Shown: positions 14,558 through 43,598 of the stretch, in pieces
Layout: every line of letters begins with the position of its first letter
How positions within the stretch are numbered: the first letter of the stretch is position 1
From: an uncultured Anaerolineae bacterium
Lineage (GTDB): Bacteria > Chloroflexota > Anaerolineae > VGOG01
NCBI GenBank assembly: GCA_964510205.1
Contig: CAZEBW010000012.1
Coordinates: 5,029-69,028 of the forward strand
DNA length: 64,000 nt
Direction: 5' to 3'
Notes under the pieces: generated by a model
The model's database searches: none
What the model was told of the DNA's origin: nothing
The model's input: the letters and a program-made list of their open reading frames with translations, nothing else
Translations under genes and position numbers: made by a program

Positions 14558-14618
14558 CCAGAATCTCCAGCCTCAGGATGTCAACGCCCCCGTCGGATAC
14601 GTTGTTCAGGCATGTTTG

Positions 14619-16680: not shown

Positions 16681-16693
16681 GCTTCTCTCCTCA

Positions 16694-17060: not shown

Positions 17061-18083
17061 TCACACCTCCTCCAGATTCAACACTCGCAACCGGCCCATC
17101 CCCCGGGTGTTCATTCCTCCCACTCCCAGATGTTCCATCAGTGCCACTCCCTGCTCCACGTGTTGGCGTACCCAGGCGATGTCGTGGGGAATGGTGCGCA
17201 TCCCTTCGGTGGTCTGATCCCTGATTTGGAAGTGCTGCGGGTTGTTATAGACCACATCGAAGTAGAAAACTGTGGCCCTGGGCAAGGCCTCGTAGGTAAA
17301 AAGAGCCTTGTCGTCAGCAGCACCTGTTTCTGGGTCAATGGCTACCGAGGTACGCACTTCCAGATTGTCGTTCACCACCTTGCTGAACAGTTCATCGGAA
17401 AGCAGCACGAGCCGGTCAAAGACCTCGTCAAGCGCGGGATTGCCCGCCGGCAGTTCAGGCAGTGCATCGTGAATACTCCCATTCTCCAGATCATCCCCTG
17501 TCTGCAGCAGCAACCACCCCAGGTTCAGCCGGGTTAGCTGCTGGTTGGAGGCAGGGTGCAACGAAGGTGCTAGGGATACTTGGCCCGTCGACACTTGAGG
17601 CGGGTGCGCCATTCCCGCCCGGCCCAGGGTGCCAGGAGACGTGACCCAGACCGGCCCAACCATGGAGTGCACCGGAAAGAACAGCACCCGGGCATCAAAG
17701 AACTGAGCCATGCCCTGCAGGCTTTGCTGCGTGCGACCGTTGGAAAAGCCGAAGGACACACAGACCGGACAATCCGGGTGGCAGCAGTGCTCCTCGCCGA
17801 AGTCACCACCCTTGCCAGCGCAACTGACTGTCCTTATTTCGGGAAGGTCATTCGGCCCCCGCTCTACCTCCCGTCGGGTCTGATAGCGCCCGGTTCGCAT
17901 GGCCGTATAGGTCCGGGCTACTCCGGAGAGACTGCTGCCGGGGATCTTAGGCAGGTTGTCGCCCGGCTCGCGGATGATAGACAGATCCACCCGGCCCAGC
18001 CGGTACCCCCCGGTGCCCACGTGAATTGGATCCAGTGCCAAGGCATAGTACCGCTGGCTGTGAAAGATGTTTCCATTGCTCAT
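17061..18083 (-). CDS. cmr4: Cmr4 (Cas7 backbone RAMP)
   Basis: LDPIHVGTGG...IPGSSLSGVAR and C-terminal G-rich GVGGMNTRGMGRLRV; ATG overlaps the cas10 stop (ATGA). Confidence 0.85.
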   Translation of the reverse strand: MSNGNIFHSQRYYALALDPIHVGTGGYRLGRVDLSIIREPGDNLPKIPGSSLSGVARTYTAMRTGRYQTRREVERGPNDLPEIRTVSCAGKGGDFGEEHCCHPDCPVCVSFGFSNGRTQQSLQGMAQFFDARVLFFPVHSMVGPVWVTSPGTLGRAGMAHPPQVSTGQVSLAPSLHPASNQQLTRLNLGWLLLQTGDDLENGSIHDALPELPAGNPALDEVFDRLVLLSDELFSKVVNDNLEVRTSVAIDPETGAADDKALFTYEALPRATVFYFDVVYNNPQHFQIRDQTTEGMRTIPHDIAWVRQHVEQGVALMEHLGVGGMNTRGMGRLRVLNLEEV

Positions 18084-22343: not shown

Positions 22344-22354
22344 ATCTCCTCCTT

Positions 22355-23497
22355 TCACACTAGCAGGCTAGTCAAGAACGTCCCTACGTTTCCTATGCAG
22401 GATACCGTATCGCGGGATGAGTTGAACTCACGCCAGACAATGGAAGTCAAGTCCACCAATGGTGGAGCGCCGAAAACATCTCGCCAGAAAGCCGAGCTAT
22501 GCAACAACATGTGCAGATCGTTCAGGAATGCATCTCGATCGAAGTCCCGTCTATGTCGCGGCAGCCAGCCCCATACCCGGAAAGGCCACTGCCCGTCATC
22601 TGGATAAGCGCCCGAGATGTTTATTTTGGCTTTGCGACGTTGCCGGCCAATGTGCCCCCAAATGTGCCGTTGATTTCCCCAAGTGGCTGCAAAGGCATTG
22701 CTCCCGTAGCGAAGTTGGTTCTTCACCGCAGGTGCAATTGAAACAGATCCAGGGCTCCCTCCCCCCCATCGCTCCAGAGTGGTAGCATGAGCACCCAAAA
22801 GAGGACGCCTATCTGAATTTGTTCGCGTCCACCACTGGTCGGCAGCATCGGCCACCAGCCGGAAGCGGGCAAAGAAGAAATCGGTCAGGGACGGGAGCGG
22901 CCCCCTATACAATGTACCAGTCGAGTAGTGGGTCAGGAACTTAGCTAAGTCTACAGTGACCGGTTGATCATCCTTTTCGGCCTTGATCCTCACTACGCCG
23001 TAACCGTGCTGGGTTCGAGCTCCTATGCCTCCCCAGGTTGCGGCCAGTTGCATGGTTACCAGCACTCTGTTGGCTACATCATCTTGATCACCGCGTAGCA
23101 CGATCAATCGCCCGTTGACACCCGTGTCCTCTGTGGCGAGCCGACCGGCTCCATAGAACCAACCAGTTCTGCGGCCTGGGGGTTTGAATCTGCACCAATC
23201 TTGCTTATCCCGTTGGGGATAGGCGAGTTGCCCGGTATCCAGTTGCAGGCGAAACTTCCGCCCCCAGCCGGTGCAACCGAATAGATCGCAGGCCACACAA
23301 TGCTCCCGATCTGCACATTGGTTTCCTCCTGGCACCGTCGGGTCACATGCATCCTCCCCCAGCCCCCGCACAATGGCCTCGTACCACCACCGCAGGCTGC
23401 CGATGATGCCCGTCTCGTGCACGCGGTCGCAGGTGCCGTCCACCCCGCCCGTCCACAGCGGGGTCAATGTATGCAGCTTGATCTCCATAGACCTCAC
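22355..23497 (-). CDS. cmr1: Cmr1-like RAMP
   Basis: LTPLWTGG...GSLRWWYEA (Cmr1 WW signature) and CVACDLFGC zinc motif; GTG start. Confidence 0.7.
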   Translation of the reverse strand: MRSMEIKLHTLTPLWTGGVDGTCDRVHETGIIGSLRWWYEAIVRGLGEDACDPTVPGGNQCADREHCVACDLFGCTGWGRKFRLQLDTGQLAYPQRDKQDWCRFKPPGRRTGWFYGAGRLATEDTGVNGRLIVLRGDQDDVANRVLVTMQLAATWGGIGARTQHGYGVVRIKAEKDDQPVTVDLAKFLTHYSTGTLYRGPLPSLTDFFFARFRLVADAADQWWTRTNSDRRPLLGAHATTLERWGGGSPGSVSIAPAVKNQLRYGSNAFAATWGNQRHIWGHIGRQRRKAKINISGAYPDDGQWPFRVWGWLPRHRRDFDRDAFLNDLHMLLHSSAFWRDVFGAPPLVDLTSIVWREFNSSRDTVSCIGNVGTFLTSLLV

Positions 23498-23949: not shown

Positions 23950-24336
23950 CTATCCCTTAGTGAGGTTGAAACCTGCCTTGAACCAATGACGCCTCTCCCG
24001 CTCCAGACGGTTGCCGAAGAGGTGAGATAGATCAATGGGCTTGTTTCCCACAAACATCCTCGGCCCTCCGGCCTCTTCCAGGCTGGCTCGCACCGGGAAG
24101 ACGATGAACGGCCTCTGGCGGCCCATGTAGTCGTTGCGCATCGCCAGCAGATTTCGCATCACCTTCGCCGTCTCGAGCGTATCTCGAGCTTCGTCCAGCA
24201 CCGCGTCCAGGCCATGCACGCGCAGCGATTGGGGCAGCGGTTCTCTGCGCTTCACGCGGCGCAGAAACTCGATCAGCCCCATCGTCTCCTGGCACCGAAA
24301 CTCGTCTTTGTCCTGTTCGATCAGGTTGTAGCTCAT
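23950..24336 (-). CDS. hypothetical protein
   Basis: 128-aa ORF, co-oriented within the island; no motif recognised. Confidence 0.35.
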   Translation of the reverse strand: MSYNLIEQDKDEFRCQETMGLIEFLRRVKRREPLPQSLRVHGLDAVLDEARDTLETAKVMRNLLAMRNDYMGRQRPFIVFPVRASLEEAGGPRMFVGNKPIDLSHLFGNRLERERRHWFKAGFNLTKG

Positions 24337-24420: not shown

Positions 24421-25146
24421 TTACATTACATTCCGGGACAACTCTGATCCTGTTGGACAGAATTCAAGCAGGGGACACTCACTACATCGCGGATTTCTGG
24501 GCGAACAATAGTTCCTACCAAGAAGAACCATTCCAACATGCAAATCTCGTCTCAGATACTCGGGAATCTTCTCTTGGAGCTCGTCGGCTTGACGCTCCGT
24601 GAGATAGATGTCGCTAGGCGTCCATCCGAGTCTATGTGCGACTCTACGGCAGTGGACGTCTACGGGAAAGACGGCGCGATTGAGCGCATACATCAACACA
24701 CACCTCGCAGTCTTAATACTGACACCTGGCAGGGAAGTTAGAAACTTCTCCGCCTCCTCTATCTCCATCTGTTTGAGGGGTGCTAAAGTAACCCGTCCGT
24801 GTTTCTCTTTAAGCTCCGAAGCGATCTTCGTGATGGCATGCGCTTTTTTGTTGTGTAAGCCCCCCTGTTCAATAGTCTTTGCTACGTATTCTGGGCGGGC
24901 CTCCGCGATACTGTTCGCCGTCTTGAACTCGCGCCGCAGCGAGCGATAGGTTTCCTGGTAAACGTCGGGGGGGGTACGGGAAGAAAGGATGATGTAGAGC
25001 AACTCATTGAACGGGTTCTTCTTGTTGCCCAACGTCGGTCGCCCGAACTCTTGCACGAGGGCTTCTGTTATCTCCTCTACGTGAGGGTGGAAACAATTAC
25101 TGTCATTGTTCACGCTTCTGTCCTCAACGGCGAACAGGGTCTTCAT
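24421..25146 (-). CDS. endonuclease III family HhH-GPD DNA glycosylase (Nth/Mig-like)
   Basis: HhH LPGVSIKTARCVL with catalytic Lys, VDVHCRRV Asp motif, and 4Fe-4S loop C-x6-C-x2-C-x5-C (CSPRNPRCSECPLLEFC). Confidence 0.8.
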   Translation of the reverse strand: MKTLFAVEDRSVNNDSNCFHPHVEEITEALVQEFGRPTLGNKKNPFNELLYIILSSRTPPDVYQETYRSLRREFKTANSIAEARPEYVAKTIEQGGLHNKKAHAITKIASELKEKHGRVTLAPLKQMEIEEAEKFLTSLPGVSIKTARCVLMYALNRAVFPVDVHCRRVAHRLGWTPSDIYLTERQADELQEKIPEYLRRDLHVGMVLLGRNYCSPRNPRCSECPLLEFCPTGSELSRNVM

Positions 25147-25152
25147 GCGAAA

Positions 25153-25824
25153 CTATGTGGATGACCACTTCATCCAGGTGTCGAGCCTGTCCAAGTGAGA
25201 CTTGAGGTCGAATATCTGGTGCTCGGTGTAAAAGGTCCAACAATACCTTTTCCCGTATAGGCTCAGGAGCAGGCAAAGCACGAGGGTAACTGGATCGTCG
25301 GCAGTCAGCGGGAAGGACGGTTGTGTCTCAGGAAGCCAACTCGGACATTCGACAGGTGGGCCGTAGCCCAAGCTCCGAATGAGCTGTGCGTGATAGAAAT
25401 CGTGGCGACCTACCTCTTTCCTCTCGTCCCCGTGAGGGCTTTCCAGGCGAAATCCAACACCACAGAGGTTTCCCTCGTTCCCATCACTGGAGATCAACAT
25501 GACTTTCATTGTCATCTTCGTTTTCGTCTCACCCAGGTTGCACCGCAGCGACAGGACCGGAACGAACTCGGGGTTCTTTTCCAACCGTGGCAGGTACAAG
25601 ACCTTGCTTCGCTCGGAGAAATCTACCTCGACTGCTTCGGAATCCGGAAACAGATTGGCCAACTCTGTCTCCCCAATGGGGGGCAGACTATTAATGAGCG
25701 TGCTCCAGGCTTTCAAAGCCCCGGCGGACGGTTTCCACCTCGGCTGTTGACGAATCCAGGCATTTTCCTGTATTCGACATAACGCTTCGAATAGTTGGCG
25801 CAGCGTACCGACAGTTTTCCGCAT
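25153..25824 (-). CDS. hypothetical protein
   Basis: 223-aa ORF; no motif recognised. Confidence 0.4.
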   Translation of the reverse strand: MRKTVGTLRQLFEALCRIQENAWIRQQPRWKPSAGALKAWSTLINSLPPIGETELANLFPDSEAVEVDFSERSKVLYLPRLEKNPEFVPVLSLRCNLGETKTKMTMKVMLISSDGNEGNLCGVGFRLESPHGDERKEVGRHDFYHAQLIRSLGYGPPVECPSWLPETQPSFPLTADDPVTLVLCLLLSLYGKRYCWTFYTEHQIFDLKSHLDRLDTWMKWSST

Positions 25825-25845
25825 AGAGCAGCCACCAAGAAATAT

Positions 25846-27036
25846 CTACAGGGAAAATCGCACTTTGGGGCGACAATCGACGCCTTTAAAGTCTTTTACG
25901 AACCTACGGGCAAACGGCGACTCTACATCTGCGACGAATTCCCTGTACCCTTCCTCGTAGAACCGAGAGGCATCTTCACAGAACACCCAACCGGGTCTTT
26001 CCATCTTCCAAGGTTCTCTCACTTCCAGGACGTCTTGACATTCTCGCAATTCGTCCCAGAACCAGACCGGCCGTGACAACCAATGATCTTTCTTCAACCG
26101 AAACGGCTCAATGAGGTCTGTCCTCAATCCGAGATCCTCGTGACTGACCAGCCGTGCTGTCCTGTTCCAGGTCTCAATGTCCATAGCATCGCCAGCCATT
26201 AGGCTTGGGTACCTCGAGACCAAATGCGGCGCATCCACTAGGATGTCCTGCTCGGGAAGCACGAGTCGCTCCAACCACTTCGAGATCCGCGCCGCACCGA
26301 CTCTAGCCAAGACGTCTTCACTCACGCCGACTGCGTTCGGTACATCCTTTCGTTCTAACCCGTTGCCAGATTCCGTGACGAACTGTCGGAACGTCGTCTC
26401 CGAAGGCTTAGCTCCCAAGAACTCACCGATGGAGCGTGGGAGCATATCGAACATCTCGGAGGTAAGACCAACAACCTGGCAGATGGGCATATCCGCGGTC
26501 AAGCTTTCCTTGACGTCTTCGACTTTCTTATCGAAATCACGAAGGTATTCGGGCAAGATCGGCCAATGCCACGGCCGGAAACTTGCTTCCGTAGCTTTCG
26601 TAACTCTCCAAAGACCGGGATTGCCCAGTTGTTCTCCTCCTACGTACAAGTCCGTGAACGGTTGCAGCTCTCCCCGTAGAGTGAGATCGAAAGCGTTGTC
26701 GCCGTATCGATATCCTACGATCAGACCGCAACTCGAGAAACAACGAGCGAGGTAAGCGACGACGTCACCGTTCGAGAAAGCGATAGCTTCGAACAGGTCG
26801 TAATCCACGACTAATATGGATGCATCGTCCACAGAGATCCGTTCGCCATCCTCCCAAGTACCGTCTTTCCGAAACGCATGCCGCCTATCTTGTAGGATTT
26901 TCATCGAGTCTATCAACTCTTGGTTTTCAGGGGTCTCGATTTCGAAGGTATCCCTCACGACGGTCAAACTCTCGAGGAATTCTCGGACCCTACCCCTGAA
27001 ACCCGGCTCGTCATCGTATATCAGGATCTTCCTCAT
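25846..27036 (-). CDS. receiver (CheY-like)-like N-terminal domain fused to an about 300-aa domain of unknown function
   Basis: MRKILIYDDEP... with acidic pair and candidate phospho-Asp (ILVVDYDL); start ATG abuts the stop of the upstream kinase gene. Confidence 0.45.
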   Translation of the reverse strand: MRKILIYDDEPGFRGRVREFLESLTVVRDTFEIETPENQELIDSMKILQDRRHAFRKDGTWEDGERISVDDASILVVDYDLFEAIAFSNGDVVAYLARCFSSCGLIVGYRYGDNAFDLTLRGELQPFTDLYVGGEQLGNPGLWRVTKATEASFRPWHWPILPEYLRDFDKKVEDVKESLTADMPICQVVGLTSEMFDMLPRSIGEFLGAKPSETTFRQFVTESGNGLERKDVPNAVGVSEDVLARVGAARISKWLERLVLPEQDILVDAPHLVSRYPSLMAGDAMDIETWNRTARLVSHEDLGLRTDLIEPFRLKKDHWLSRPVWFWDELRECQDVLEVREPWKMERPGWVFCEDASRFYEEGYREFVADVESPFARRFVKDFKGVDCRPKVRFSL

Positions 27037-29192
27037 TTGGTTTCCCTCCAACTGAGCAAAAATGCGGTACTGAATCCCTCGTCCGGTTCGACGAAGCTGA
27101 CCCTGCAACCGATCCTCTCGGCCAACAAACGCACGATCGTCAGCCCAAGCCCTGTACCTCCGTAACCGAGAGCCCGCCTTTCCCGCGATATAGCCACTCC
27201 CCTCTCGAAAGGCTCGAAGAGTCTGTCCACATCTCGGAGATCGACTCCCAGTCCAGTGTCTTGTACGAGGATCTCACGGGACTTTCCCTTAGCACGGGAA
27301 CTCACTTGCAGTATCCGTTCCTCCGAATGCATCATGGCGTTGAAGGCATTGGTGAACACATTCTGGAAGAGCGCACTCCATTCGGCGAGTGAGGCTTCAG
27401 GTAATCGAAGATCCTCGTCGACTTTGCTCGTATCGATTTCAACACCCCTCGCGAGGAATGAAGTCTGTCTCTCGACCTCCTCAACCACTTCGGCAACACG
27501 AAACCGACGCTTCGTCTGAACGTTCTCGGCGTCCGCCAGGTAGTCGAAGAGTGCGTTGGTCGCTCTCGCCCTCTCTAACCACGAGGATAGATCCTCTCTC
27601 AACGAATCGAAGGATCGGCGAAGGCTGGCATCACTGGTTCGAACCTTTGCGATTCTTTCAATGATGCTCTCGATAGTAGAAAACTGCTTCCTCAACTCGT
27701 GTTGATATGCCAACGCAGAGATACCGGCCGTCGCCAGGGGACCCAGCATCCCCATCTGCCTGAGGGCCACTTCTTGACTGGCCGTCGCCGCAGTCGTGGC
27801 ATCTCGGATTCTCTCGTGAAGATCTCGATAGACGTCGTCGGGAATCCGTGGTTCGTAGTGTTCCAAGACTTGTTCGACGCGCTCGAACTTCAGAGACGTC
27901 GGTTCGACAGGAGCCTCCTTTAGTTTACGCTCGAACTGCCGGCGGGCTTCTTCGAAGGCGTACAAATCAAAGGCATATCGAACCATCGCTACGAGATCCC
28001 GAAACGCAGTGGTTTCCTCCAGGCGGTCTCGAGTGATCATAATGCGGAGGTTACGTTCTTGAGACGTATTGACGTTCACGACTCCAAAGATACGTCCCAG
28101 AGTCGGTAGGTACCTCAATCTTTGGGTTTCAGCATATTGGGCCTGGAGTTCCTTGGGCAAGAGTTCCGATGCGAACTTCCGATGAGCGTGGTCGAACTCA
28201 ATTCGCAACCAGTCGTTCTCCGGCGAACCGTACCAAGGTAGACGGAAGCCGCTGTCGTAGACGTGGACGCCTCCGTGCTTCCAGAAGTACTCTCGCGCCT
28301 CTCCGACTTTGATACCGTGAGGTTGTCGGTACTGCAACTTGAAGATCCTGATCTCGAAATTACCTTCGTTGAGGTTCTTCTTTTCGTCGAAGTGCCCGTC
28401 GTTGTGAGGAAAGTCGGCGACGTCGTAGGTATGAGTCTGGGGCGGCTCACCGGCGAATTCGAGCGAGAGAGAAACGCGTTCGCCTTCGTTCTCTCCGACG
28501 AGTCTAGCCGTCCAGATCTTCATGATCGCCCGAATTTGCTCTTCGAACACCTCCTCGAACTCACGTTGGGGCGACTGAAAATTGATTTCGAAACGCTCCT
28601 CGGGAGTGAGCGACGAAGAGCGGAAGGGGGGTTGCAGCCACCACAGCTCCCCTGCGAGCCCTTCGATCTCGTCCTCGCTCCACTCGTGCTTCAATCCACT
28701 CAAGACGATGGACGTTCCTTGCTCGAAGGGTGGAGGCGACGACTTCTCGGTGTAGAACACACTCGCGTCTACGAGGTCTCCCGCCTGCACGGCTTCTTCC
28801 CAATCGACGCTCGCTTCGAGCCACTTACCGTCGTGCTCCTTCGGCACGGTGGCTATCCTCAGGTTTCTAGCGAGGAACTGAACCGCGAGCCGCCCGATAC
28901 CCTTCGAACCGGTCATCGGTCTCTCCAGGTACTTCGATACCCGCTTCTCAGTTTTGTGAATCGTACCGATCCGCATCCAGAAGTCTCTGAATTCGCCGAA
29001 GGTCATGCCGTGGCCGTCGTCACGTACTTCGATGCGATCTTCCTCGGGAGCGAATTCGATCGTCGCTTCGAACGCATCCGCATCGTAGCTGTTTTTGACT
29101 AGCTCCGCCAGGGCAATGTGGGGTTTGCCCACGAGCCTCTCGCCGAGTTCCCTCAGCAGAGCGGCGTCTACCGTGAATTTCAAGTGTGGCAT
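27033..29192 (-). CDS. double-GHKL protein: N-terminal MORC/Hsp90-type ATPase plus C-terminal histidine kinase (HisKA-like H-box plus HATPase_c)
   Basis: N-terminus: ELVKNSYDADA (N box), DDGHGM, GSKGIGRLA; C-terminus: AYQHELRKQF (H-box), NVFTNAFNA, DTGLGV, FEPFERG, GYGGTGLGLTIV. Confidence 0.6.
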   Translation of the reverse strand: MPHLKFTVDAALLRELGERLVGKPHIALAELVKNSYDADAFEATIEFAPEEDRIEVRDDGHGMTFGEFRDFWMRIGTIHKTEKRVSKYLERPMTGSKGIGRLAVQFLARNLRIATVPKEHDGKWLEASVDWEEAVQAGDLVDASVFYTEKSSPPPFEQGTSIVLSGLKHEWSEDEIEGLAGELWWLQPPFRSSSLTPEERFEINFQSPQREFEEVFEEQIRAIMKIWTARLVGENEGERVSLSLEFAGEPPQTHTYDVADFPHNDGHFDEKKNLNEGNFEIRIFKLQYRQPHGIKVGEAREYFWKHGGVHVYDSGFRLPWYGSPENDWLRIEFDHAHRKFASELLPKELQAQYAETQRLRYLPTLGRIFGVVNVNTSQERNLRIMITRDRLEETTAFRDLVAMVRYAFDLYAFEEARRQFERKLKEAPVEPTSLKFERVEQVLEHYEPRIPDDVYRDLHERIRDATTAATASQEVALRQMGMLGPLATAGISALAYQHELRKQFSTIESIIERIAKVRTSDASLRRSFDSLREDLSSWLERARATNALFDYLADAENVQTKRRFRVAEVVEEVERQTSFLARGVEIDTSKVDEDLRLPEASLAEWSALFQNVFTNAFNAMMHSEERILQVSSRAKGKSREILVQDTGLGVDLRDVDRLFEPFERGVAISRERRALGYGGTGLGLTIVRLLAERIGCRVSFVEPDEGFSTAFLLSWRETK

Positions 29193-29210
29193 GGCTGAAG
29201 ATGCTCCATA

Positions 29211-30266
29211 TCAGTCGACGTGTGTTTCGAGGTGACGTTTGATACTCCTGGCGATGACCCTCCCCAACTCGACGGGGACCGCGTTCCCCACGAGTCTCCC
29301 AACGACACTGAAGTAAACGGGGTCTCCGGGGGCGACAAACTGGTAGTCTTCTGGAAAGGTCTGAAGCAGGGCGGCTTCTCGCAGCGATATCGCGCGGTCT
29401 TGCTCGGGATGTCCGAACCTACCGTTCCCGAAGCCATGACACTGAGCAGTGAGCGTAGGAGCCGGTTCGTCCCACGCCATCCTCCCGTAGACGCTGGCGT
29501 AACCCTGCCCGCTCTCTTTCTTGTGACATTCGGCGACGAGTTCTTCGGGCCAGTCTCTCCAGGTACCTCCAGGCACCGACGCCCTTATCCTACGCAAGTT
29601 CAACCCCGACAGACTGCTAGCCTTGTGGAGCGGGTCGCTCTCGCTGGTCTGCCCGGCCTCAAGCGGTTCGAGGTGACCGATGGCATCCCGGACGGTTCCG
29701 TATTCGTCGGGAGAGTGTGTCTCGTCCACGATCTCGACTTCACCGTACCTGGAAGCGAAGAGTACCAACCTGGTCCGGTGCTGGGGGATTCCGTAGTCTG
29801 GGCAATACACCTCCGGATACTCTGTGACGTGGTATCCCTTCTCCTTCAATCGGTCGACGAAGGCGCGGTAGACCTCTCCGTCCCTGAAGGTGGCCAGGTC
29901 GGGGACGTTCTCCATTGAGGCGACATCGGGTTCCACTTCACAGATCAGATCGGCGAACTTGGGGACTAGTCTCCACTTCTCGTCTTTGTCTTCCTTCTTC
30001 TTCGTGTAAGGTGAATAGGGTTGACAAGGCGCACATCCGACCAGAATCTTGACGTGTCCCTCCGGATAAAGCGCCACAATCTCTTCGGTGGTCATGTCTT
30101 CGACTCTCTCGTTTATGAACCGTGCGCCGTCGTTGTTTGCCTCGTACGGGTACTCGCAGGCTTCGTCGACGTCGATTCCTGCCACGACGTCGAACCCTTC
30201 CAAGATGAAACCGTGGGTCAACGCCCCAGCGCCACAGAACAAATCTATGACTGAACAATTCTCCAT
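29211..30266 (-). CDS. DNA (cytosine-5)-methyltransferase
   Basis: motif I DLFCGAGAL, motif IV GCAPCQPYS, motif VI ENV, C-terminal QTFPEDYQF. Confidence 0.9.
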   Translation of the reverse strand: MENCSVIDLFCGAGALTHGFILEGFDVVAGIDVDEACEYPYEANNDGARFINERVEDMTTEEIVALYPEGHVKILVGCAPCQPYSPYTKKKEDKDEKWRLVPKFADLICEVEPDVASMENVPDLATFRDGEVYRAFVDRLKEKGYHVTEYPEVYCPDYGIPQHRTRLVLFASRYGEVEIVDETHSPDEYGTVRDAIGHLEPLEAGQTSESDPLHKASSLSGLNLRRIRASVPGGTWRDWPEELVAECHKKESGQGYASVYGRMAWDEPAPTLTAQCHGFGNGRFGHPEQDRAISLREAALLQTFPEDYQFVAPGDPVYFSVVGRLVGNAVPVELGRVIARSIKRHLETHVD

Positions 30267-30355
30267 CTGTTAGGCTACCCCTACTCCAGTTTTCTTTGGC
30301 ATTCCGAATAAACGACTTACTTTGACTACAAGTATAACCCGCAGCGGCTTAGAAG

Positions 30356-33076
30356 TCAAGACCAATCCAGTGACGCTCTATGCTGCATCCTCTTCAGATA
30401 ATCGGCGATCTCTTGATACCCCTCGTTACGCTTGATTTTGGCCAACTCCTCCAGGGTGAAGATGATACCCCGGCGGGCGAAGGGGGCTGCCTCAGCCAGG
30501 AGATCCCTGTGCTCCCGCACGTAGATCATATAATGCGCACCGTCAATGGCCAACTCCGGATCGGTGGGGCTGATGTGGTCTCGCCGCGCCGCCGGCAGAG
30601 TCACCCAAAGCTTGCCCCCATCGGATCGAAGCAGGTCTCGGTCGGTGAAGTCCTCCACGTCGGCACCACGGCCACGCAGCAGCTTGTTCAGCGCGTCGTA
30701 GGTGATGGAGTCGCGGTCGGCCAGAAACAGCAGGTAGAGCGCGGTCAGCGTGTCGGTCTGGCTGACCAGGGTCTGGAAGCGCTCCTCAATGAGCTGTTCG
30801 GCGACGATGGCGCTGGTGCGCTGAACCGCCTCTTTCACCTCCACCATCTCTCCCTCTTCCATCACGTTGGGGTAGTGTTTGGAGTAGAGCTCCAGGCACT
30901 TGGCCTGGGCCACCACGCCCATGTCCGGCTCGCTGAGGTAGCGGCCATCGTGGCGGCGATAGTACTCCACGATGGCCGCCGCCCGGTCGTGGATCTGCTG
31001 AGCCAGGCGGTACCAACTGATGCGCTCCCCCTCGCCGTCCCGCCGCCGGGCGACGAGGATGGTGTCGTAGGAGATGTTCTTCTTGTCGTAGATGTGGGTG
31101 CTGGAGGACATCTCAGAGTGGATGGGCCAGGCGGCAGTGACGTAGAAACCCGCGTCCAGCAGCGCTTTCAGCACCGCGCTCCAGGCTTCGTCCTGTTTGT
31201 GATGATAGGTGAAGGCCATCAGCCCATCCCGCCTGAGCACGCGATAGCATTCGCGGAAGATATCGGTCAGCATTCGCAGGAAGTCTTCTTCATCTTTGCC
31301 CTGGGCGTCGTTCTTGACCGCCTCCTCGGCCTTGGGCGTCAGCGCGGCGCGGAAGTGGGGATAGCGGTCCTTGAGCGCCAGCCGCAGCCAGACGTAGAAG
31401 AAATCGGAGAGCTCCGAGTACATGACGTTATCGTAGTAGGGCGGATCGGTGAGCACCAAGTCTACGCAGTTATTGCGCAGCGGCAGAAAGTCGGAGGAGC
31501 GGCAAAGGAGCAGGGCGTTGCCCTGCTGGCCTAAATTCTCAAACTTCTCAACTAATGTTCCCTGAATCGGTTTCCGATTCGGTGTCTCTTGAATACTATC
31601 ATTAGCGTCTATATACTTTTCGAAGGGCTTGACTAGAAACTGCTGCCCCACTCTGGTCTTTTCGAACTCTGAAACAAAGCTGCCGGTACCATACTCAGTG
31701 CCCCAGAGATTGTTTTCTACGGGCCTACTCGCCGGATGATAGGCATGTCCTTTGAAGATGTTGTGGATCTTATTGTAGCTGAAATTGTACACGTTAAACG
31801 TCGAGTTGTACCGTAAGGTATCTGAAAGAGTGAGCAGGAACACTTCTTGCATACCTTGATCTTTGATCTGCCAAATCTCGCGCAGTAGTCTTCCCAAACA
31901 CAGCAACTGCCGAGCGTTGAACATGTCGCGGAAGTTGTGGTAGCCCCAATTGGGCAGACGCGGCGTGGTCTCTTTTCCCTCTGGAATCTCCTGATCCGGC
32001 AAGGGCAGGGTGTCGCCGATCTCGGCCAGTTCTCGCTCTGCTGCGTGGTAGAGCGCTCGGTCCTCCTCGTCGGCGGCCTTGTAGCCCTTCAAGTCGCAGT
32101 GGGGACAATAGTACTCCACGCCGTAGAGCCGCTCCGGCGGCTTGCCCAACTGGGCGATGGCGCCCACTACTTTGTACTTCTGCCGGCAGTCGGGCCGGGG
32201 GCAAGTGTAGTACTGGCCGCTGGCGTTGCCCTCGGTGGCCTTGAAGGCGTGCCCACAGTGGGGGCAGCGGTGCTCCTCGCGGTAATTCCGCGCCTCGAAC
32301 ATCCCCTCGCACAGCGGGCAGAGCAGGTGGTAATATTCACCGTGATCGAACTCCCAGCCGCACTCGGGACACTCCGGGTCTTCCTCGGTGGGCGCGAAGT
32401 CGGTCCCGCACTCGGCGCACAAGACATGGGGATGGTGCTCCACCTTTGCCGAGCGCGACGAGGCCACGCGGTAGTCCTTGAACAACGGCACGGGGTGGCC
32501 GCAGTTGGTGCAATCCAGCTCCTTGACCCAGAAATAGTACATGGCGTCGGCCTCGCGCCCGCAGAGCGGGCAGGTGGTCTTGTAGTACTGGAGGATCTGC
32601 GGCGCGATCGTCTCCTCCAGGTGCTCGAAGGCGGCGTCCAGTGCGTCCAGATCCACCGGCTCGATCTCTTTTTTGACCACAAACCAGGCCACGGGATTGA
32701 GATCGCAGCCGATGACGTTCGCCCCCAGCCGCAGCGACTCCACGATGCTGGTGCCTCCGCCCATCATCGGGTCCAGCACCACCTTGCCCCTCCCCACCTG
32801 AGCATCCTTCAAATAGAGGTCCCAGATGCGCTCCTCCTCGCTCTTCTCGAAGGTGAGCAGGTCGCCGCCCACCTCAGCCTCGGCTCGTGCCAGCGTCTCC
32901 TCGTCGGTGAGGGCGTAGAGGGCGATGGTGCGGAACACGCTTCCCAGCCGCCGCGCCCACCACTTGTGCATGGTGTAGACCGGGCGGTAGTAGCGCTTGG
33001 CGTGGGCCTCTCGCTCGGCGATGCGGTTCACCTCGCTGATGGGGAACGTGCGCTCGATGGGTTTTTGGTTGGGCAT
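30356..33076 (-). CDS. DUF1156-like DNA methyltransferase with a multi-zinc-ribbon insert
   Basis: N-terminal ISEVNRIAEREAH...MHKWWARR, motif I DPMMGGGTS, motif IV LVLTDPPYY, four CxxC...CxxC pairs; ATG MPNQKP with GGGGGAA RBS. Confidence 0.75.
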   Translation of the reverse strand: MPNQKPIERTFPISEVNRIAEREAHAKRYYRPVYTMHKWWARRLGSVFRTIALYALTDEETLARAEAEVGGDLLTFEKSEEERIWDLYLKDAQVGRGKVVLDPMMGGGTSIVESLRLGANVIGCDLNPVAWFVVKKEIEPVDLDALDAAFEHLEETIAPQILQYYKTTCPLCGREADAMYYFWVKELDCTNCGHPVPLFKDYRVASSRSAKVEHHPHVLCAECGTDFAPTEEDPECPECGWEFDHGEYYHLLCPLCEGMFEARNYREEHRCPHCGHAFKATEGNASGQYYTCPRPDCRQKYKVVGAIAQLGKPPERLYGVEYYCPHCDLKGYKAADEEDRALYHAAERELAEIGDTLPLPDQEIPEGKETTPRLPNWGYHNFRDMFNARQLLCLGRLLREIWQIKDQGMQEVFLLTLSDTLRYNSTFNVYNFSYNKIHNIFKGHAYHPASRPVENNLWGTEYGTGSFVSEFEKTRVGQQFLVKPFEKYIDANDSIQETPNRKPIQGTLVEKFENLGQQGNALLLCRSSDFLPLRNNCVDLVLTDPPYYDNVMYSELSDFFYVWLRLALKDRYPHFRAALTPKAEEAVKNDAQGKDEEDFLRMLTDIFRECYRVLRRDGLMAFTYHHKQDEAWSAVLKALLDAGFYVTAAWPIHSEMSSSTHIYDKKNISYDTILVARRRDGEGERISWYRLAQQIHDRAAAIVEYYRRHDGRYLSEPDMGVVAQAKCLELYSKHYPNVMEEGEMVEVKEAVQRTSAIVAEQLIEERFQTLVSQTDTLTALYLLFLADRDSITYDALNKLLRGRGADVEDFTDRDLLRSDGGKLWVTLPAARRDHISPTDPELAIDGAHYMIYVREHRDLLAEAAPFARRGIIFTLEELAKIKRNEGYQEIADYLKRMQHRASLDWS

Positions 33077-33087
33077 GGAATTCCCCC

Positions 33088-33116
33088 TTGACAAATGTCA
33101 AAAAACTCGCTACAAT
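33088..33116 (+). promoter_or_regulatory. consensus sigma70-like promoter oriented antisense to the flanking genes
   Basis: TTGACA-17-TACAAT on the plus strand; the -35 lies in the palindrome TTGACAAATGTCAA; a 12-bp hairpin (about 33150-33182) lies downstream. Confidence 0.4.
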
Positions 33117-33197
33117 ATCAACGAATGATGGATCGGGAGTACCCGGTCGGGAGAGGAGAGTCTGCGTGACTCTCCTCTTGTCGTTAGAACGCGCCCG

Positions 33198-34076
33198 TTA
33201 AAACGCGACTCGCAGCACCGGCACCAAGCACTCCAACAGGCTGATCCCTCCGTGCAGCATCACCTTATACTTGCCCCGCGTGGCCCAGGCGTAGCGGTTG
33301 CCCACCAGGTAGTACCCGTCATGCTCGACGATGTAGCCAGCTTCGATCAGGTCGTCGGCTCTGGTTTCGACTTCGGCGTAGCGCGAGGCGCCAAAGATAG
33401 CTTGCATGGCTCCTTGCAGACGCTTCGGCAGAGGGAGAAAATGCGTCTCGGTGCTGATGTAGCCGTGATCCGAGGTCACCAGAAACTCGTTCCCGTACAG
33501 CCTCTCGCAGATGTTCAACAGCACCTCCCGAGACTTCTCGTAGATGTCAGTCTGAGTCCGCACCTTCACCCGTCCCTTGATGTCCTCCAGTTCCTTGTCC
33601 GGAATGGGACACCAGATGCCTCTTTCATCGCCATCCAGTGACAGTCGGTTGACGTCTTTGATCTCCACTGTCTTGGCCGCCCAGGGGTAGAAAATGGCCT
33701 CTTTGTAGAAAGCCGTCTCCGAGGGCAGGCAGGAGTAGGCGAAGGAGAGTTCATAATCGGCGTCCAGGTCACGGCAAAGCAGCAGCGCTTCTCGCAGACT
33801 CAGAGCGTCCATCCAGATGATGGGCAACTCTACGGATTCCACGTCCAGATTGCAGCACGAACAGCGGTGGGGCAGGATCTCGCGGTAAAGCTCCGGATAG
33901 GCAGCCCCCAGCACCTTCTCCAAGTACATCGTCCGCCGCTCGCCCTGCTTGAAGTAGGTCTCTCCCAACTCCTCTTGAGGACGCCACAGGTTCTGCAGAT
34001 ACCTCCATATTGCTGGCATCGGATCGTCAGCTTGAATCAATTGACGCAGCAGGTCGGCGAGCTGTAAGCTATCCAC
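33198..34076 (-). CDS. PglZ/alkaline-phosphatase-superfamily domain protein
   Basis: IIWMDALSLREA (metal-binding Asp), SCLPSETAF (nucleophile region), LVTSDHGY (DHG motif). Confidence 0.55.
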   Translation of the reverse strand: MDSLQLADLLRQLIQADDPMPAIWRYLQNLWRPQEELGETYFKQGERRTMYLEKVLGAAYPELYREILPHRCSCCNLDVESVELPIIWMDALSLREALLLCRDLDADYELSFAYSCLPSETAFYKEAIFYPWAAKTVEIKDVNRLSLDGDERGIWCPIPDKELEDIKGRVKVRTQTDIYEKSREVLLNICERLYGNEFLVTSDHGYISTETHFLPLPKRLQGAMQAIFGASRYAEVETRADDLIEAGYIVEHDGYYLVGNRYAWATRGKYKVMLHGGISLLECLVPVLRVAF

Positions 34077-36480
34077 GGTGCACCACCTTCAATTGCAGTC
34101 GGATGGCCGTGCTCTCAGGCAGCCCAGCGATCAGTTTCTCCAGTTCGGCTTTGTCCAGCGGTAACTGGCGCTCATCGACCACAATGGCGATCTCGTGCAC
34201 TGTATCCTGTGGCCCCAATTCCTGCAGTCCCAGTGGTGTGTAGCCGACGATGGAGAGAGGCTGCGGAGTGGGTTCAGGGGTAGTGGGCGAGACGCCTTCC
34301 ACCGCTTCGCCCTCCGGGACAAGCCTCTTTCTCTTGCCCACCGCTGGGTAAATCAGTTCCCCTTCTTCCTCTCCAGGTGCTATTTCTTCTCGTGGCTCCC
34401 ACTGTTTGAGACGTTCATAGCGAGTCACGGAAAGCCCCTCGTGAGCGAAGAGCGGAAAAGTGTCACGTCCCGGCAGGTAGTTTTGCTTTAGCCCCTTGAA
34501 GCCAATCTCTCGGTTGCGATAAAGCTCCTGGAGCGCATTCTCGACGTCGTCTCGTTCTTTGACCATCGGATAGCGGCGGATGCGGAAGAAGTCGTCAATC
34601 AGGCGTTTGACCTCGATGAAATCCTGCTCCTCGAGGGTTTCCAGTATCTGATCATAGGCCGCATCTAGACCGGCCACGGCGCGCTGCTTGATCACCTCCA
34701 CGTCGGGGTCCACGTTGCGCCTGGACAACCTGCCGCCGGTCATCCACTGCACGTAGCGACCGTAGGCCTCCTGCAACTCTCCGATGAGCCGAGGGAGGTC
34801 CTCCTCGTTTTTCGTGGCCAGCAGCTCTTCGCGCAGTTCCTCGATGTCCCGCTGCTCGCCCGTCAGCAGACGCTCTTCAGCCACCACTCGTTTGGCATTC
34901 TCCAAATTGTCGTCCCATTCGTAGACGCTCTTCGTGCCCAGGAACGCTTTTGGCACCACCAACACCGCCCGGTTAGGCCAATTCAGTTTTCCCAGCGCAG
35001 CATTGATCTCATCGTCATCCATATCGCGCGGAGCCACGACAACTTTTAGCCGCTGATCATCAATGTCCTCCAATTCGGAGAACAGGTAAGCTCCCTTGCC
35101 AAACACCTTTTTCTTGATTAGCTCGTCAATCTTGGCTCGTGCCTCCTCATCTTCCACCCGGCCGGCCTCCGCTCGGACGATGGCATAGATGTTCAGTTCC
35201 GGGGTCAGTCGAAATCGCCCGTTGCCTTTTAGATGAAATGCCGTTCCGTCGAGCTGCTTGAGCGGCAAGGTGATATCGTTGACGCTTCCCTCTGGTCTAA
35301 GCAAACCCTGGACGAGTTCATCCCGCGTTGCGCCCGGCACGCTTGGGCGCAGCGAGTGGAAGAAAATCGTTGAGAGCAGAGCCTCGGCGTTCTTGATTTC
35401 CCAACAGCGCTCAATGTCCTCTTGAAGGGCCGTATGCAGTGTCGGATCAATGGAGAGCAGTTCGCGGGGGGGCACATCGGAGGGCAACAGTAGGTCACGC
35501 TTATCCAACTGGGCGGCTACCAAGGCAGCCAACGTACGCAACGTATCGCGGATGCCTTGCTGGCCTGGGCGAGCGTAAATCTCCTTGAGCGTAGTAAAGA
35601 GCCTGGGATGGAAGGGGTACAAATGGAGCATCGTCTCCACGGACAGGTCTTCAGTAGTGTAGTCACCATAGCTGGTTAGATAGGCCTCCACGATTCTTCG
35701 TGCCTTTTCCTCATCGCAGTGAGCAAAGAGCCGATGGTGTACGATAGCCCAGCGCTCTCCCACCGCGACCATGTTTTCGGATATGGCGCCAGTGCGTTGC
35801 AGCAGCGCTTTGAGGTCAGGATTCTGATCCAACAGAGAGATAAACAGGAAGAGATCGAACCCTGGCTCGCTGGCCACTTCAGTCAAATTCTGCAGAAAGC
35901 CCCGATTGCGTCCACGGCGTACCTCGTCAGCGGCGATGCTGTCATACCAGTTTTCGATCTCATCAATGAAGACAGCCAGTGTGCCCTTGCTTGCCAGCTC
36001 CTTGAGTTGTGAGATGGTGGGGTAATCCTTGATCTCGGACAGGAGATCCTCACGATTTGCCCGGCGAAACAAGGGTTCCCACAAATACTCGGGTTGATCC
36101 TCTTGAGCAGAGATCATGACAGCCCGAGGCTCACTAAGCGGCAGAGAAGGAAGGCCGTGATTCTGCAGCCAGCTCCTGCCTAGTTCTGGGTGGACAAACA
36201 GGTGATACAGCGCAATCAAGGCGTGAGTCTTTCCGCTGCCCATTCTGCCGATGGGCAGGAAGGCCCCCTGAACCCGATCACCTTCCAGTTTTTGGTGCAT
36301 CAGTTCGACGAAACGCTGTAGAGAAGCGGATGGATACGTGACGGCGAAGAAGAGTTCTGGGTTGTTTTCCAGCTTGTCGGCCTCAGCTTCCCGACCAACG
36401 CGATAGGCCCTCAGGTCACCCTGAAAGTTCCCGGATAGAACATCGGGTCGAGCCTCAACAATATCTTGGATCAACATCAC
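34069..36480 (-). CDS. large P-loop ATPase (DUF499-like)
   Basis: Walker A GRMGSGKTH, Walker B LAVFIDEIE; 803 aa; overlaps the downstream PglZ-like gene by 8 nt. Confidence 0.7.
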   Translation of the reverse strand: MMLIQDIVEARPDVLSGNFQGDLRAYRVGREAEADKLENNPELFFAVTYPSASLQRFVELMHQKLEGDRVQGAFLPIGRMGSGKTHALIALYHLFVHPELGRSWLQNHGLPSLPLSEPRAVMISAQEDQPEYLWEPLFRRANREDLLSEIKDYPTISQLKELASKGTLAVFIDEIENWYDSIAADEVRRGRNRGFLQNLTEVASEPGFDLFLFISLLDQNPDLKALLQRTGAISENMVAVGERWAIVHHRLFAHCDEEKARRIVEAYLTSYGDYTTEDLSVETMLHLYPFHPRLFTTLKEIYARPGQQGIRDTLRTLAALVAAQLDKRDLLLPSDVPPRELLSIDPTLHTALQEDIERCWEIKNAEALLSTIFFHSLRPSVPGATRDELVQGLLRPEGSVNDITLPLKQLDGTAFHLKGNGRFRLTPELNIYAIVRAEAGRVEDEEARAKIDELIKKKVFGKGAYLFSELEDIDDQRLKVVVAPRDMDDDEINAALGKLNWPNRAVLVVPKAFLGTKSVYEWDDNLENAKRVVAEERLLTGEQRDIEELREELLATKNEEDLPRLIGELQEAYGRYVQWMTGGRLSRRNVDPDVEVIKQRAVAGLDAAYDQILETLEEQDFIEVKRLIDDFFRIRRYPMVKERDDVENALQELYRNREIGFKGLKQNYLPGRDTFPLFAHEGLSVTRYERLKQWEPREEIAPGEEEGELIYPAVGKRKRLVPEGEAVEGVSPTTPEPTPQPLSIVGYTPLGLQELGPQDTVHEIAIVVDERQLPLDKAELEKLIAGLPESTAIRLQLKVVHRG

Positions 36481-36644: not shown

Positions 36645-36673
36645 TAGTATATCATCTTTCGTCTCGTTTGGCA
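36645..36673 (-). promoter_or_regulatory. putative promoter for the ATPase-PglZ-methylase operon
   Basis: minus-strand TTGCCA-17-TATACT. Confidence 0.4.
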
Positions 36674-36681
36674 AAAGCAAG

Positions 36682-40737: not shown

Positions 40738-40980
40738 ATGAACGGGAACGAAAGCACGTGCTGGGAGACGACCGACCTCTACCTGGTGGCTGCCCTGCGC
40801 TGCCGAGGCCACCAACTCCTCGACATCCGCCCAGGGGCCCGTCGGGCCACCTTCCTGCTGGAGGATTCCCCTGCTCTGCAGGAGGACATCAAAGCCTACT
40901 TCACCCGCAACCTTCACCTGGAAGCCATGGCCTACGCTGCCTCCATCAAGGACACCAAAGCCGCCATCTTCAACACCTAG
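40738..40980 (+). CDS. small hypothetical protein
   Basis: 80 aa; AAAGGAG RBS; TGaTATAAT extended -10 upstream. Confidence 0.45.
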   Translation: MNGNESTCWETTDLYLVAALRCRGHQLLDIRPGARRATFLLEDSPALQEDIKAYFTRNLHLEAMAYAASIKDTKAAIFNT

Positions 40981-41006
40981 CCCCAGCGCCCGGCAAGGAG
41001 CCAGAG

Positions 41007-43598
41007 ATGCGATACGATGACCTCAAGGAGCGGGTGCGGGACGCTAGTGCCATCGAAGAGGTGGTGGCCGAGACCGTGTCCTTGCCCGCTCGAAAGAGTC
41101 CCCAGGGATACAAGGTCCGCTGCCCCTTTCACGAGGACGCCCAGCCCAGCCTGCACGTCTACCCTCAAAGCGAGAGCTGGTGGTGCTACGGATGCCAGCG
41201 CGGCGGCGACGTCTTCGACTGGGTGCAGTGTAGGGATGGGGTGGATTTCCCCCAGGCGGTGCGGACGCTGGCCGATCGGGCTGGCCTACACTGTCCACCG
41301 CGCACCGCCGAGCAGCAGTCAGCAGCTCTCAGACAGCGGGCCCTCCAGGACGTGCTGGCTCAGGCTGCAGCCTTCTATCACCAGGCCCTGATGAACACTG
41401 CCCCCATCAAACAGAGTCAACTGGATCGCGGCTTCAGCGAGGACACCCTGCGAGCCTTTCGGGTGGGCTACGCTGGCGCAGGCCGTCTACTAGCGCAGCA
41501 CCTGCGCCGCCAGGGCGTGGATGCAGGGCTGGCTCAGGAGGCCGGGCTGCTGTGGGACGACGGGCGAGACACCTTCACCCAGCGCATCATCTACCCCGTC
41601 CTCTCGCGGGGTCGCGTCGTCTACCTCACCGGCCGTGCCACCACCGAGAAGCAGGTGAGAGCTGGCAAGAAGTACTACCACCTGCGCGGCCCGCGCCCCC
41701 TGTTCCATCCCGACGCGCTGCGCGGGCAGGGGCCGCTGTTCCTGGTCGAGGGGCCCACCGACGTGTTGACCCTGCACCAGTGGGGAGGGCGGGCGGTAGG
41801 CCTGATGGGCCTGGGGAAGCTGTCGGATCGCGACCTCTCGATGATACGACGCGCCGAGACCGTCTACGTGGCCCTGGATAGCGACGAAGCGGGTCGGCGC
41901 CGCGCGGAGGAGCTGGCCCGAAGCATCGGGCCGCTGGCGCACGTCTTGGCCTGGCCTGAGGGTATCCAGGATGCTAACCACTACCTCACCACGGGCCACA
42001 CCGCCGAGGACTTCCAAGACCTGGTAGGCGGTGCCCCCACCCTGCTGGAGATGGACATCGCTCGCACCGCACAGCAGGAGGGAGCCAGGCAGGAAGCACA
42101 CCTCAAGCAGCTCTTCACCCAATTGACCGCACTCACTCCCTTCGCCCTGGCGCGCTACAAGACCCTGGTGGCCAGCAAGCTAGGGATCAAAGCGCGGGAG
42201 TTCAGCCGCCTGCTGAAGGCGGCGCAGGCGGCCCAGCAACTTCAGAACGGCCCTCCCCAGATCGTGGAAGGCCGCTACCGCCTCATCTCGCCGGCCCTGG
42301 ACTTCCTGGACGACGTGGCCTGGGTGACGGTGCCCCTCCTGGTGCAGCAGGGCGCGCGCTTCGAGCACCAGCCCTATCTGGTCACCAGCACGCGGGAGCT
42401 GCTGCCTCTCCAGGAGGGGACGGCCCTGGAGCTGGACGGCCGCTCGCTGGTGGTGCGGGAGTGGCCGTCGGCGTTGGGCCGCTCCCCCCGTTGGGAGTAC
42501 GGCCACATCCAAGCCTTCCTGCAGGGCGACACGCCCCAGCCCCAGGACGTCTTCGGTAGGGTACGCGCCCTGTACGACAAGTACCTGGACTTCCGCCATC
42601 CGCACACCGCCGACGTCCTGGCCCTGTGGGCCATGGGCACCTACCTGTATCCGTTGTTCGAGACCTATCCCTACATCGCCCTGATGGGGCCCAAGGGCAG
42701 CGGCAAGACCAAGACCATCAGCCTCACCGCCAGGCTGGCCTTCAACATGCGCGTCACCAGCGACATCTCCCCCAGCGCCCTGTTCCGTGTGGTGGAGGCC
42801 ACGCGGGCCACCTTGGGCATCGACGAGAGCGAGCGGCTGTCGCACGGCCGCGACGCCGTGGTCATGAACCTGCGCTTGCTTTTGAACGCCGGCTACAAGC
42901 GGGGCTCGCCGGCCCTGCGCATCGAGGGGGAGGACTTCAAGGTGCGGGAGTTCGAGGTGTACGGGCCCAAGATCCTGGCCAGCATCCGCGGTCTGGAGGA
43001 CGTCTTGGAGAGCCGCTGCATCCTGATCACCATGCTGCGCACCACGACGTCGAAGGGCAACCTGACCATCTCCGAGTCGGGGGAGGACTGGGCTGGGGTG
43101 CGGCACGAGCTGTACAGCCTGGCCCTGACCCACCACGGTGGTGTGCGATCTCTCTACGAGGGGGACGCCAGCCTACGCTTCCTGACCAATCGGGACAACG
43201 AGCTATGGCTGCCGCTGTTGTCGCTGGCCAAGCTGTTGGAGGAGCGGGGCGTGGCGGGGCTTCTGGAGCGGGTGAAGGCTTACGCCCTGGACAGCAGCCG
43301 GCAATCGGAGGGCAGCACCCTGTCCGATTGGGAGCAGGCCCTTCTCCTGGCGCTGCGTGAGCTCACCGAGTCCGAGGAGCGGTGCGATCTGACCACGGGG
43401 GCCATTCGCAAGGGGATGAGCCAGTTCCTGGAGTCGGGGGAGTGGGAGGAGCTGCGACCGCAGTGGATCGGCTACGCGCTAAAGCGGTTGGGCTTCAGCG
43501 ACAAGACCCGCCGTCGGAGGGGCAACGTCTATCATATCATCGGCCGCGAGGTGCGGGAGCTCATGGAGCGGTACGGGGTGGAAGTGCCGCTTGAATAG
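41007..43598 (+). CDS. DnaG-type primase (CHC2 zinc finger plus TOPRIM) fused to a C-terminal P-loop NTPase domain
   Basis: CPFHEDAQPSLHVY...WWCYGCQRGGDVFDW; TOPRIM LFLVEGPTDVLTL...VALDSDEAGRR; Walker A MGPKGSGKTKT; AAGGAG RBS. Confidence 0.8.
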   Translation: MRYDDLKERVRDASAIEEVVAETVSLPARKSPQGYKVRCPFHEDAQPSLHVYPQSESWWCYGCQRGGDVFDWVQCRDGVDFPQAVRTLADRAGLHCPPRTAEQQSAALRQRALQDVLAQAAAFYHQALMNTAPIKQSQLDRGFSEDTLRAFRVGYAGAGRLLAQHLRRQGVDAGLAQEAGLLWDDGRDTFTQRIIYPVLSRGRVVYLTGRATTEKQVRAGKKYYHLRGPRPLFHPDALRGQGPLFLVEGPTDVLTLHQWGGRAVGLMGLGKLSDRDLSMIRRAETVYVALDSDEAGRRRAEELARSIGPLAHVLAWPEGIQDANHYLTTGHTAEDFQDLVGGAPTLLEMDIARTAQQEGARQEAHLKQLFTQLTALTPFALARYKTLVASKLGIKAREFSRLLKAAQAAQQLQNGPPQIVEGRYRLISPALDFLDDVAWVTVPLLVQQGARFEHQPYLVTSTRELLPLQEGTALELDGRSLVVREWPSALGRSPRWEYGHIQAFLQGDTPQPQDVFGRVRALYDKYLDFRHPHTADVLALWAMGTYLYPLFETYPYIALMGPKGSGKTKTISLTARLAFNMRVTSDISPSALFRVVEATRATLGIDESERLSHGRDAVVMNLRLLLNAGYKRGSPALRIEGEDFKVREFEVYGPKILASIRGLEDVLESRCILITMLRTTTSKGNLTISESGEDWAGVRHELYSLALTHHGGVRSLYEGDASLRFLTNRDNELWLPLLSLAKLLEERGVAGLLERVKAYALDSSRQSEGSTLSDWEQALLLALRELTESEERCDLTTGAIRKGMSQFLESGEWEELRPQWIGYALKRLGFSDKTRRRRGNVYHIIGREVRELMERYGVEVPLE

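Follow-up and report, generated by a model that had tools for sequence, protein, structure and literature searches.

A helicase-less, BREX-related four-gene operon interrupted by an unrelated methylase cassette in an uncultured Anaerolineae bacterium

A BREX-related operon without a helicase

The 64,000-nucleotide stretch analysed here (the window) comes from an uncultured Anaerolineae bacterium (contig CAZEBW010000012.1, positions 5,029 to 69,028), and its minus strand carries a four-gene operon that is related to the bacteriophage exclusion (BREX) systems, has no helicase and is interrupted by an unrelated methylase cassette. The operon encodes a DUF499 ATPase, a standalone PglZ protein, a DUF1156 DNA methylase and a small DUF8076 protein. 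The original prediction, made from the sequence, had described the first three as a module at 30356-36480; the three co-oriented open reading frames (ORFs) of 803, 292 and 912 amino acids are indeed found there, with the 8-nt overlap between the ATPase and PglZ genes (34069-34076) and all of the motifs that had been quoted (GSGKT, FIDEIE, TSDHGY, DPMMGGGTS and DPPY). The fourth gene, DUF8076, was missed; it lies outside those coordinates, at 23950-24336, whereas its place in 20 of the ~25 related loci is directly behind the methylase. The domain composition had also been said to echo BREX in a minimal, rearranged form; the relationship to BREX holds, but the absence of the helicase that belongs to the nearest described family had gone unnoticed. 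Searches of the whole 64-kb window with the cognate Snf2 helicases (tblastn) gave no match at E ≤ 0.01.

Related loci were gathered by a scan with the PglZ alignment, keeping one genome per species and leaving out the four most distant of its 23 sequences, and ORFs were called and clustered in the resulting 62 loci. They fall into two main architectures and a third form. The canonical bacterial form (Alphaproteobacteria, Verrucomicrobiota, Planococcus, Paenibacillus, Desulfocicer and others) has an ATPase of ~920 residues, a PglZ of ~330, a methylase of ~1070-1120, a protein of ~170 and a SNF2 helicase of ~921 (Pfam). The form seen in haloarchaea and Anaerolineales, to which the window belongs, has an ATPase of 800-950 residues, a PglZ of 292-327, a methylase of 845-920 and DUF8076, and no helicase. 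In the third form (Ignavibacteria and Rhodocyclales), a protein of 145-179 residues sits between methylase and helicase. The architectures form separate clades in a neighbour-joining tree of the ATPase, with the DUF8076 loci apart from the canonical helicase loci. The order ATPase-PglZ-methylase-DUF8076 is kept in metagenome-assembled genomes (MAGs) of Anaerolineales/Chloroflexota and in more than 15 haloarchaeal genera, and the four-gene form is spread between Chloroflexota and haloarchaea. The 8-nt overlap of ATPase and PglZ genes also recurs in Chloroflexota and haloarchaeal relatives (L001, 7219-10008 and 10001-10939; L002-L005).

The cognate helicase was found by tblastn in only one of the 23 DUF8076 loci, L035; L031 gave a weak, unrelated SNF2-like match, and 21 have no cognate helicase within ~7 kb on either side. 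L035 (10924-17115, Candidatus Methanoperedens) alone combines DUF8076 with an Snf2 helicase, in the order methylase-DUF8076-helicase, and seems to be intermediate between the canonical form and the one without a helicase. We considered whether a conserved alternative helicase or nuclease takes its place in the haloarchaeal loci and rejected this: the large neighbours are heterogeneous defence genes (PD-(D/E)XK, GmrSD, McrB-like with EVE, and various helicases), and none is conserved as a fifth partner. The possibility, raised with the original prediction, that these are core genes of the lineage does not apply, as they are accessory: they are patchily distributed across bacteria and archaea, lie always in defence islands and, in L018, are carried on a plasmid. 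As side observations, RadC-like JAB genes stand ahead of the ATPase in L011, L012, L032 and L035, and in L028 (Saliphagus sp.) two methylase paralogues (10899-13547 and 14340-16988) flank DUF8076. The two copies are 80% identical and diverge most at about residues 300-500, which suggests two specificities in one locus.

The three enzymes

The ATPase matches Pfam DUF499 (1.1e-9, 37.2 bits against a cut-off of 23), PADLOC HmaC (5.7e-10) and NCBIfam DUF499_antiphage (1.5e-9, far below the equivalog cut-off). In a 19-sequence family alignment, G81, G83 and K84 of Walker A (GRMGSGKTH) and D173 and E174 of Walker B (FIDEIENW) are invariant. At 803 residues it is shorter than canonical DUF499 proteins (~920-1020). 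Neither the single sequence nor the 19-member profile matched any solved structure, and we therefore base its relationship to BrxC on Pfam, PADLOC and the literature.

Taken alone, the 292-residue protein is a borderline match to PglZ (Pfam 3.4e-4, below the cut-off; PADLOC 2.6e-6), and its alignment to the BREX PglZ models covers only its C-terminal third. The assignment is made firm by a 23-member family profile, which matches PglZ (9nv3_C, 4e-9) and PorX (7e-7) in the PDB, and by an AlphaFold2 model (pLDDT 92, pTM 0.91), for which Foldseek returns PorX (E 1e-9, TMq ~0.6) followed by phosphonoacetate hydrolase and nucleotide pyrophosphatase/phosphodiesterase (NPP) enzymes. D90, T121 (LPSET), D203-H204 (TSDHG) and H275 (HGG) are invariant in the family alignment of bacterial and archaeal sequences, and they fit the metal ligands and nucleophile of the alkaline-phosphatase/NPP fold. 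A protein-wide search with the short PglZ yielded 121 clusters (50% identity) at E ≤ 1e-30; since the matches listed are, apart from truncated ones, nearly all of 290-350 residues, we regard them as a distinct family of standalone PglZ proteins. Identity to the homologues is 50-91% in Chloroflexota/Anaerolineales MAGs and ~30% in haloarchaea.

The methylase matches DUF1156 (1.5e-5, 25.5 bits against a cut-off of 24) and N6_N4_Mtase (9.4e-13) in Pfam, HmaB (6.7e-44) and PglX|PglXI (6e-32) in PADLOC, and NCBIfam DUF1156_antiphage (3.6e-41, far below the equivalog cut-off), so that all three domain assignments of the original prediction hold. Motif I (DPMMGGGTS) and motif IV (DPPY) are invariant in the family alignments. 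Between them lies a target recognition domain (TRD) insert whose eight Cys pairs (residues 175-333) make up the four zinc ribbons that had been predicted. Against solved beta-class N6-adenine and N4-cytosine methylases, the family profile matches only around motif I. The target is likely N6-adenine, judging from DPPY and the characterised relatives.

DUF8076, the fourth gene

The DUF8076 ORF was recognised by clustering with its counterparts in the related loci. Its database homologues all carry PF26277, an assignment that uses precomputed Pfam matches, the local Pfam scan having given no DUF8076 report, and the same gene is called on an identical metagenomic contig. In the relatives, a DUF8076 gene of 129-134 residues begins ~3-30 nt past the methylase stop; here it has been displaced ~6 kb from the methylase by the five-gene cassette, with no terminator-like site ahead of it in the window. 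The protein shows full-length homology to the small protein found between methylase and helicase in Ignavibacteria (hhalign 95%, E 2e-8). Its AlphaFold2 model is a small alpha/beta protein (best pLDDT 88.7, two of the five models being poor). A search of PDB sequences with its profile found nothing, and we found no mention of DUF8076 in the literature searched. We suggest that it is probably an adaptor in the BrxB/iSTAND position, possibly a shortened homologue of that partner.

Comparison with known systems

[quoted passage not shown] Type-3 BR, described there from 569 taxa, of which 134 are archaeal, has in addition a standalone active PglZ and, for 82% of the taxa, a small inactive STAND protein (BrxB/BrxF-like); the helicase of this type is without a nuclease, some of the methylases carry two 4C zinc fingers, and PglZ is proposed as the primary effector or nuclease. 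The type is defined there by computation, and our literature search found no experimental work on it, in agreement with the original prediction, which held that the combination had been noticed in comparative genomics and was not functionally characterised. The predicted relationship to BREX is likewise borne out by this architecture. The combination of ATPase, PglZ and methylase is therefore known in kind as Type-3 BR, and the helicase-less DUF8076 form is a variant of it; such loci may already be among the 569 taxa, without comment.

The canonical bacterial loci that we recovered match the Type-3 BR description, whereas the window clade has three of its features (ATPase, methylase and PglZ) and not the helicase. 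Shared with Type-3 BR are the DUF499 AAA+ ATPase with intact Walker A and B, the DUF1156 N6-methylase with a zinc-finger-bearing TRD insert, the standalone PglZ with intact catalytic residues, and a small accessory protein behind the methylase, in the gene order of canonical L038, L056 and L058. The window locus differs in that it has no Swi2/Snf2 (BrxHII-like) helicase, a core component there, in that DUF8076 (~129 residues) replaces an iSTAND protein of ~170 to which homology is not demonstrable, in its shorter ATPase (803 against ~920 residues) and methylase (912 against ~1070-1120), and in the four zinc ribbons of that methylase, where one or two have been described.

With BREX itself, the locus shares a BrxC-like ATPase, a PglZ, a PglXI-type methylase and probably a partner in the BrxB position, and the same logic of ATPase-dependent, site-specific methylation with a PglZ nuclease would be expected here. 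It differs in that the ATPase is DUF499, not DUF6079, and in that PglZ is a bare catalytic domain, whereas BREX PglZ has an N-terminal inactive helicase-like domain and a C-terminal Ig-like domain. The locus is also without BrxA, BrxL, BrxF and BrxHII; no Pfam or PADLOC match to BrxA, BrxB or BrxL was found in the operon genes scanned.

The ATPase and methylase are homologous to those of Hma (Type 1 BR) and MANTIS/Gao_RL (Type 2 BR; classification as in PMC12839542), but the window locus has PglZ in place of their helicase-nuclease effector (HmaA or MtsD). There is no HmaA-type helicase ORF beside the genes matching HmaB and HmaC, and no Pfam or PADLOC match in the locus to DUF3780 (MtsB) or the PLD-helicase (MtsD). 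Among BR-type systems, our literature search found a biochemically defined mechanism for MANTIS alone: the DUF499 ATPase MtsA loads the DUF1156-type methylase MtsC and, with MtsB as stimulator, activates it, ATP hydrolysis allows turnover, and MtsC hemimethylates asymmetric 6-bp sites (10.64898/2026.09.23.753747).

How the system might work

We favour, as somewhat the better bet, a BREX-related four-gene defence system without a helicase, in which ATPase-loaded methylation would be combined with restriction by PglZ. By analogy, the ATPase would bind DNA and, with its small partner DUF8076, load and activate the four-zinc-ribbon methylase at short asymmetric sites, so that host DNA is marked as self. 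PglZ, which would be coupled to the ATPase by the translational overlap and appears to be the only nuclease-type enzyme of the core, would nick or cleave incoming unmarked DNA, and no translocating helicase would be involved. We are more tentative about the stronger proposal that the four genes are a complete, autonomous defence that, having neither a helicase nor a BrxL-type motor, both marks self and restricts foreign DNA; we place it a little short of an even chance. If true, this would be the smallest BREX-type system, with PglZ as its sole and sufficient effector.

Several points weigh against the favoured proposal. Every characterised relative needs a motor for restriction, which is MtsD in MANTIS and, in BREX, either BrxL or a helicase. 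DUF8076 is separated from its partners by 6 kb and probably expressed from the cassette promoter, so that stoichiometric coupling may be disturbed. Aligned with the canonical ~170-residue small protein of Type-3 BR (hhalign, single and merged profiles, several modes), DUF8076 reaches only E ~0.01 (0.007-0.02), with a "VxGLD" strand aligned, while unrelated controls reach 0.02; the match is not significant, and we claim only positional equivalence. In Foldseek, the DUF8076 model has no match in the PDB below E 0.098, and the weak top matches are all P-loop folds (p97, RAD51 paralogues, Shu1:Shu2, KaiC and DnaI). Finally, the profile matches of the methylase include both the N6-adenine and the N4-cytosine class, and either base may be its target.

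Restriction without a motor is the weak point, and it supports the alternative that we take most seriously, although we judge it unlikely: that the loss of the helicase removed restriction and left a methylation-only epigenetic module, an orphan-like ATP-dependent methylase system for protection from other nucleases or for gene regulation. The set of four would match the methylation subset of BREX (BrxB-like, BrxC-like, PglZ and methylase); in type I BREX, methylation needs BrxB, BrxC, PglZ and PglX, and restriction generally needs all six proteins. MANTIS similarly methylates with MtsABC and restricts only when the helicase-nuclease MtsD is added (10.64898/2026.09.23.753747), and ~20 loci lack the helicase. 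On the other hand, the catalytic residues of PglZ are all invariant in bacteria and archaea, which is unexpected for a purely structural role, the loci lie in defence islands and on a plasmid, and the literature (PMC12839542) proposes PglZ as the primary nuclease of Type-3 BR. Still unsettled are the way in which BREX-type systems stop phage and the question whether PglZ is their true effector; in the systems studied, PglZ is found within large multi-domain proteins, beside motors (BrxL or helicases). A naturally minimal operon, in which PglZ is a bare domain and a motor is absent, would allow a clean test of whether ATPase-loaded methylation and PglZ are enough for immunity and, if they are not, of whether the helicase-less form is a domesticated methylation system.

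The nested cassette

The cassette that separates the methylase from DUF8076 bears on a further alternative, less likely than a methylation-only module, in which the restriction arm would act in trans: the nested GHKL cassette, or an unlinked helicase or nuclease, would replace Snf2, and the BR genes and the cassette would be one composite system. The cassette does lie inside the operon, with no terminator-like site between it and DUF8076; auxiliary effectors have been found to be often embedded in BREX and BR loci, and relatives have other inserts at the junction of PglZ and methylase (DUF3800, a Schlafen-HATPase_c_4 protein and a PIN toxin-antitoxin pair), which fit this published pattern. 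We nonetheless consider an arm in trans improbable. The five-gene cassette occurs as a unit without BR genes in L072 and L073, L074 has the genes for C5-methylase, GHKL ATPase and ~400-residue protein with which it begins, and L070 has the GHKL, ~400-residue and ~230-residue genes inside a type I restriction-modification (R-M) locus; in most helicase-less BR loci, a cassette of this kind is absent. As it stands alone elsewhere, we regard it as autonomous and as an insertion into the BR operon. With its own C5-methylase and a glycosylase of the T:G-repair type, it appears to be self-contained, an R-M-like system, so far uncharacterised, into which a T:G repair glycosylase is built.

The original prediction had noted that a C5-methyltransferase follows immediately, and it does (29211-30266). 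Membership of the module, by analogy with DrmMII of DISARM (2.7e-93), was considered and rejected, since the cassette to which the gene belongs is autonomous elsewhere. Seen by eye, the N-terminus of the 396-residue cassette protein looks receiver-like. The locus also shows BR operons serving as landing sites for other defence cassettes, a complete C5-methylase/GHKL system being nested here.

That the locus is a decaying, non-functional remnant of canonical Type-3 BR, with its helicase lost and its operon disrupted by insertion, is also less likely than a methylation-only module and, in our view, very improbable: a missing helicase and an interrupted operon speak for it, but all four ORFs are intact, and the catalytic residues and translational overlap are kept at 30% identity in two domains of life across more than 20 loci, a conservation that indicates purifying selection on the helicase-less form.

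Promoters and layout of the locus

The promoter that had been proposed for the module, TTGCCA-17-TATACT, is present upstream of the ATPase, with a TG before the -10 (Table 1). Just upstream of it is a GC-rich hairpin followed by a T-run, a terminator-like site of the upstream gene, and a Shine-Dalgarno sequence (GGAGG/AAGGAG) precedes the GTG/ATG start of the ATPase. The 8.2-kb region holds seven promoter-like sites, where shuffled sequences give an expectation of 2.1. The best sigma-70-like match in the region is antisense, TTGACA-17-TACAAT (11/12) at 33088-33116 (+), inside the 103-nt gap between PglZ and methylase, the junction at which relatives bear inserted genes.

Table 1. Features of the operon and of the cassette nested in it (window coordinates)
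Feature	Coordinates	Strand	Remarks
Promoter-like site TTGCCA-17-TATACT	36646..36674	-	TG-extended -10; ~165 nt upstream of ATPase start
DUF499 AAA+ ATPase, BrxC-like	34069..36480	-	803 aa; Pfam, PADLOC, NCBIfam
Standalone PglZ, alkaline-phosphatase/NPP fold	33198..34076	-	292 aa; profile and AlphaFold2 model
DUF1156/PglXI-like N6_N4 DNA methylase	30356..33094	-	912 aa; Pfam, PADLOC, NCBIfam
Cassette promoter-like site TTGACT-17-TATACT	30359..30331	-	At BR methylase stop codon
Nested five-gene cassette	24421..30266	-	Outside BR core
C5-methylase	29211-30266	-	Pfam 2.2e-55; PADLOC DrmMII 2.7e-93
GHKL ATPase	27033-29192	-	719 aa; N-terminal HATPase_c_3, C-terminal histidine-kinase-like HATPase_c
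396-aa protein	25846-27036	-	>1,200 homologues in many phyla; without Pfam family
223-aa protein	25153-25824	-	
HhH-GPD glycosylase	24421-25146	-	
DUF8076 protein, fourth conserved gene	23950..24336	-	128 aa; clustering with relatives, PF26277 in homologues

Genomic surroundings

The locus is part of a defence island and adjoins a type III CRISPR-Cas system with a large array, which runs from 5333 to ~11000 and has at least 74 copies of a 37-nt repeat (GTTTCAGTCCCCCGAAGGGGATTCGTCGTTTTTCTAC). The type III cas genes extend up to 23.5 kb and include RAMP proteins (17061-23497) and a Cas10-sized ORF of 993 residues (18080-21061). A tandem repeat with a 56-nt unit, in about six copies, lies just upstream of the array (3948-4283). 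Just beyond the locus are genes for a primase-like protein with a CHC2 zinc finger, Toprim and a C-terminal P-loop (40758-43598, +) and for a large serine recombinase (45946-48024, +), and the defence island may lie on or beside an integrative element.

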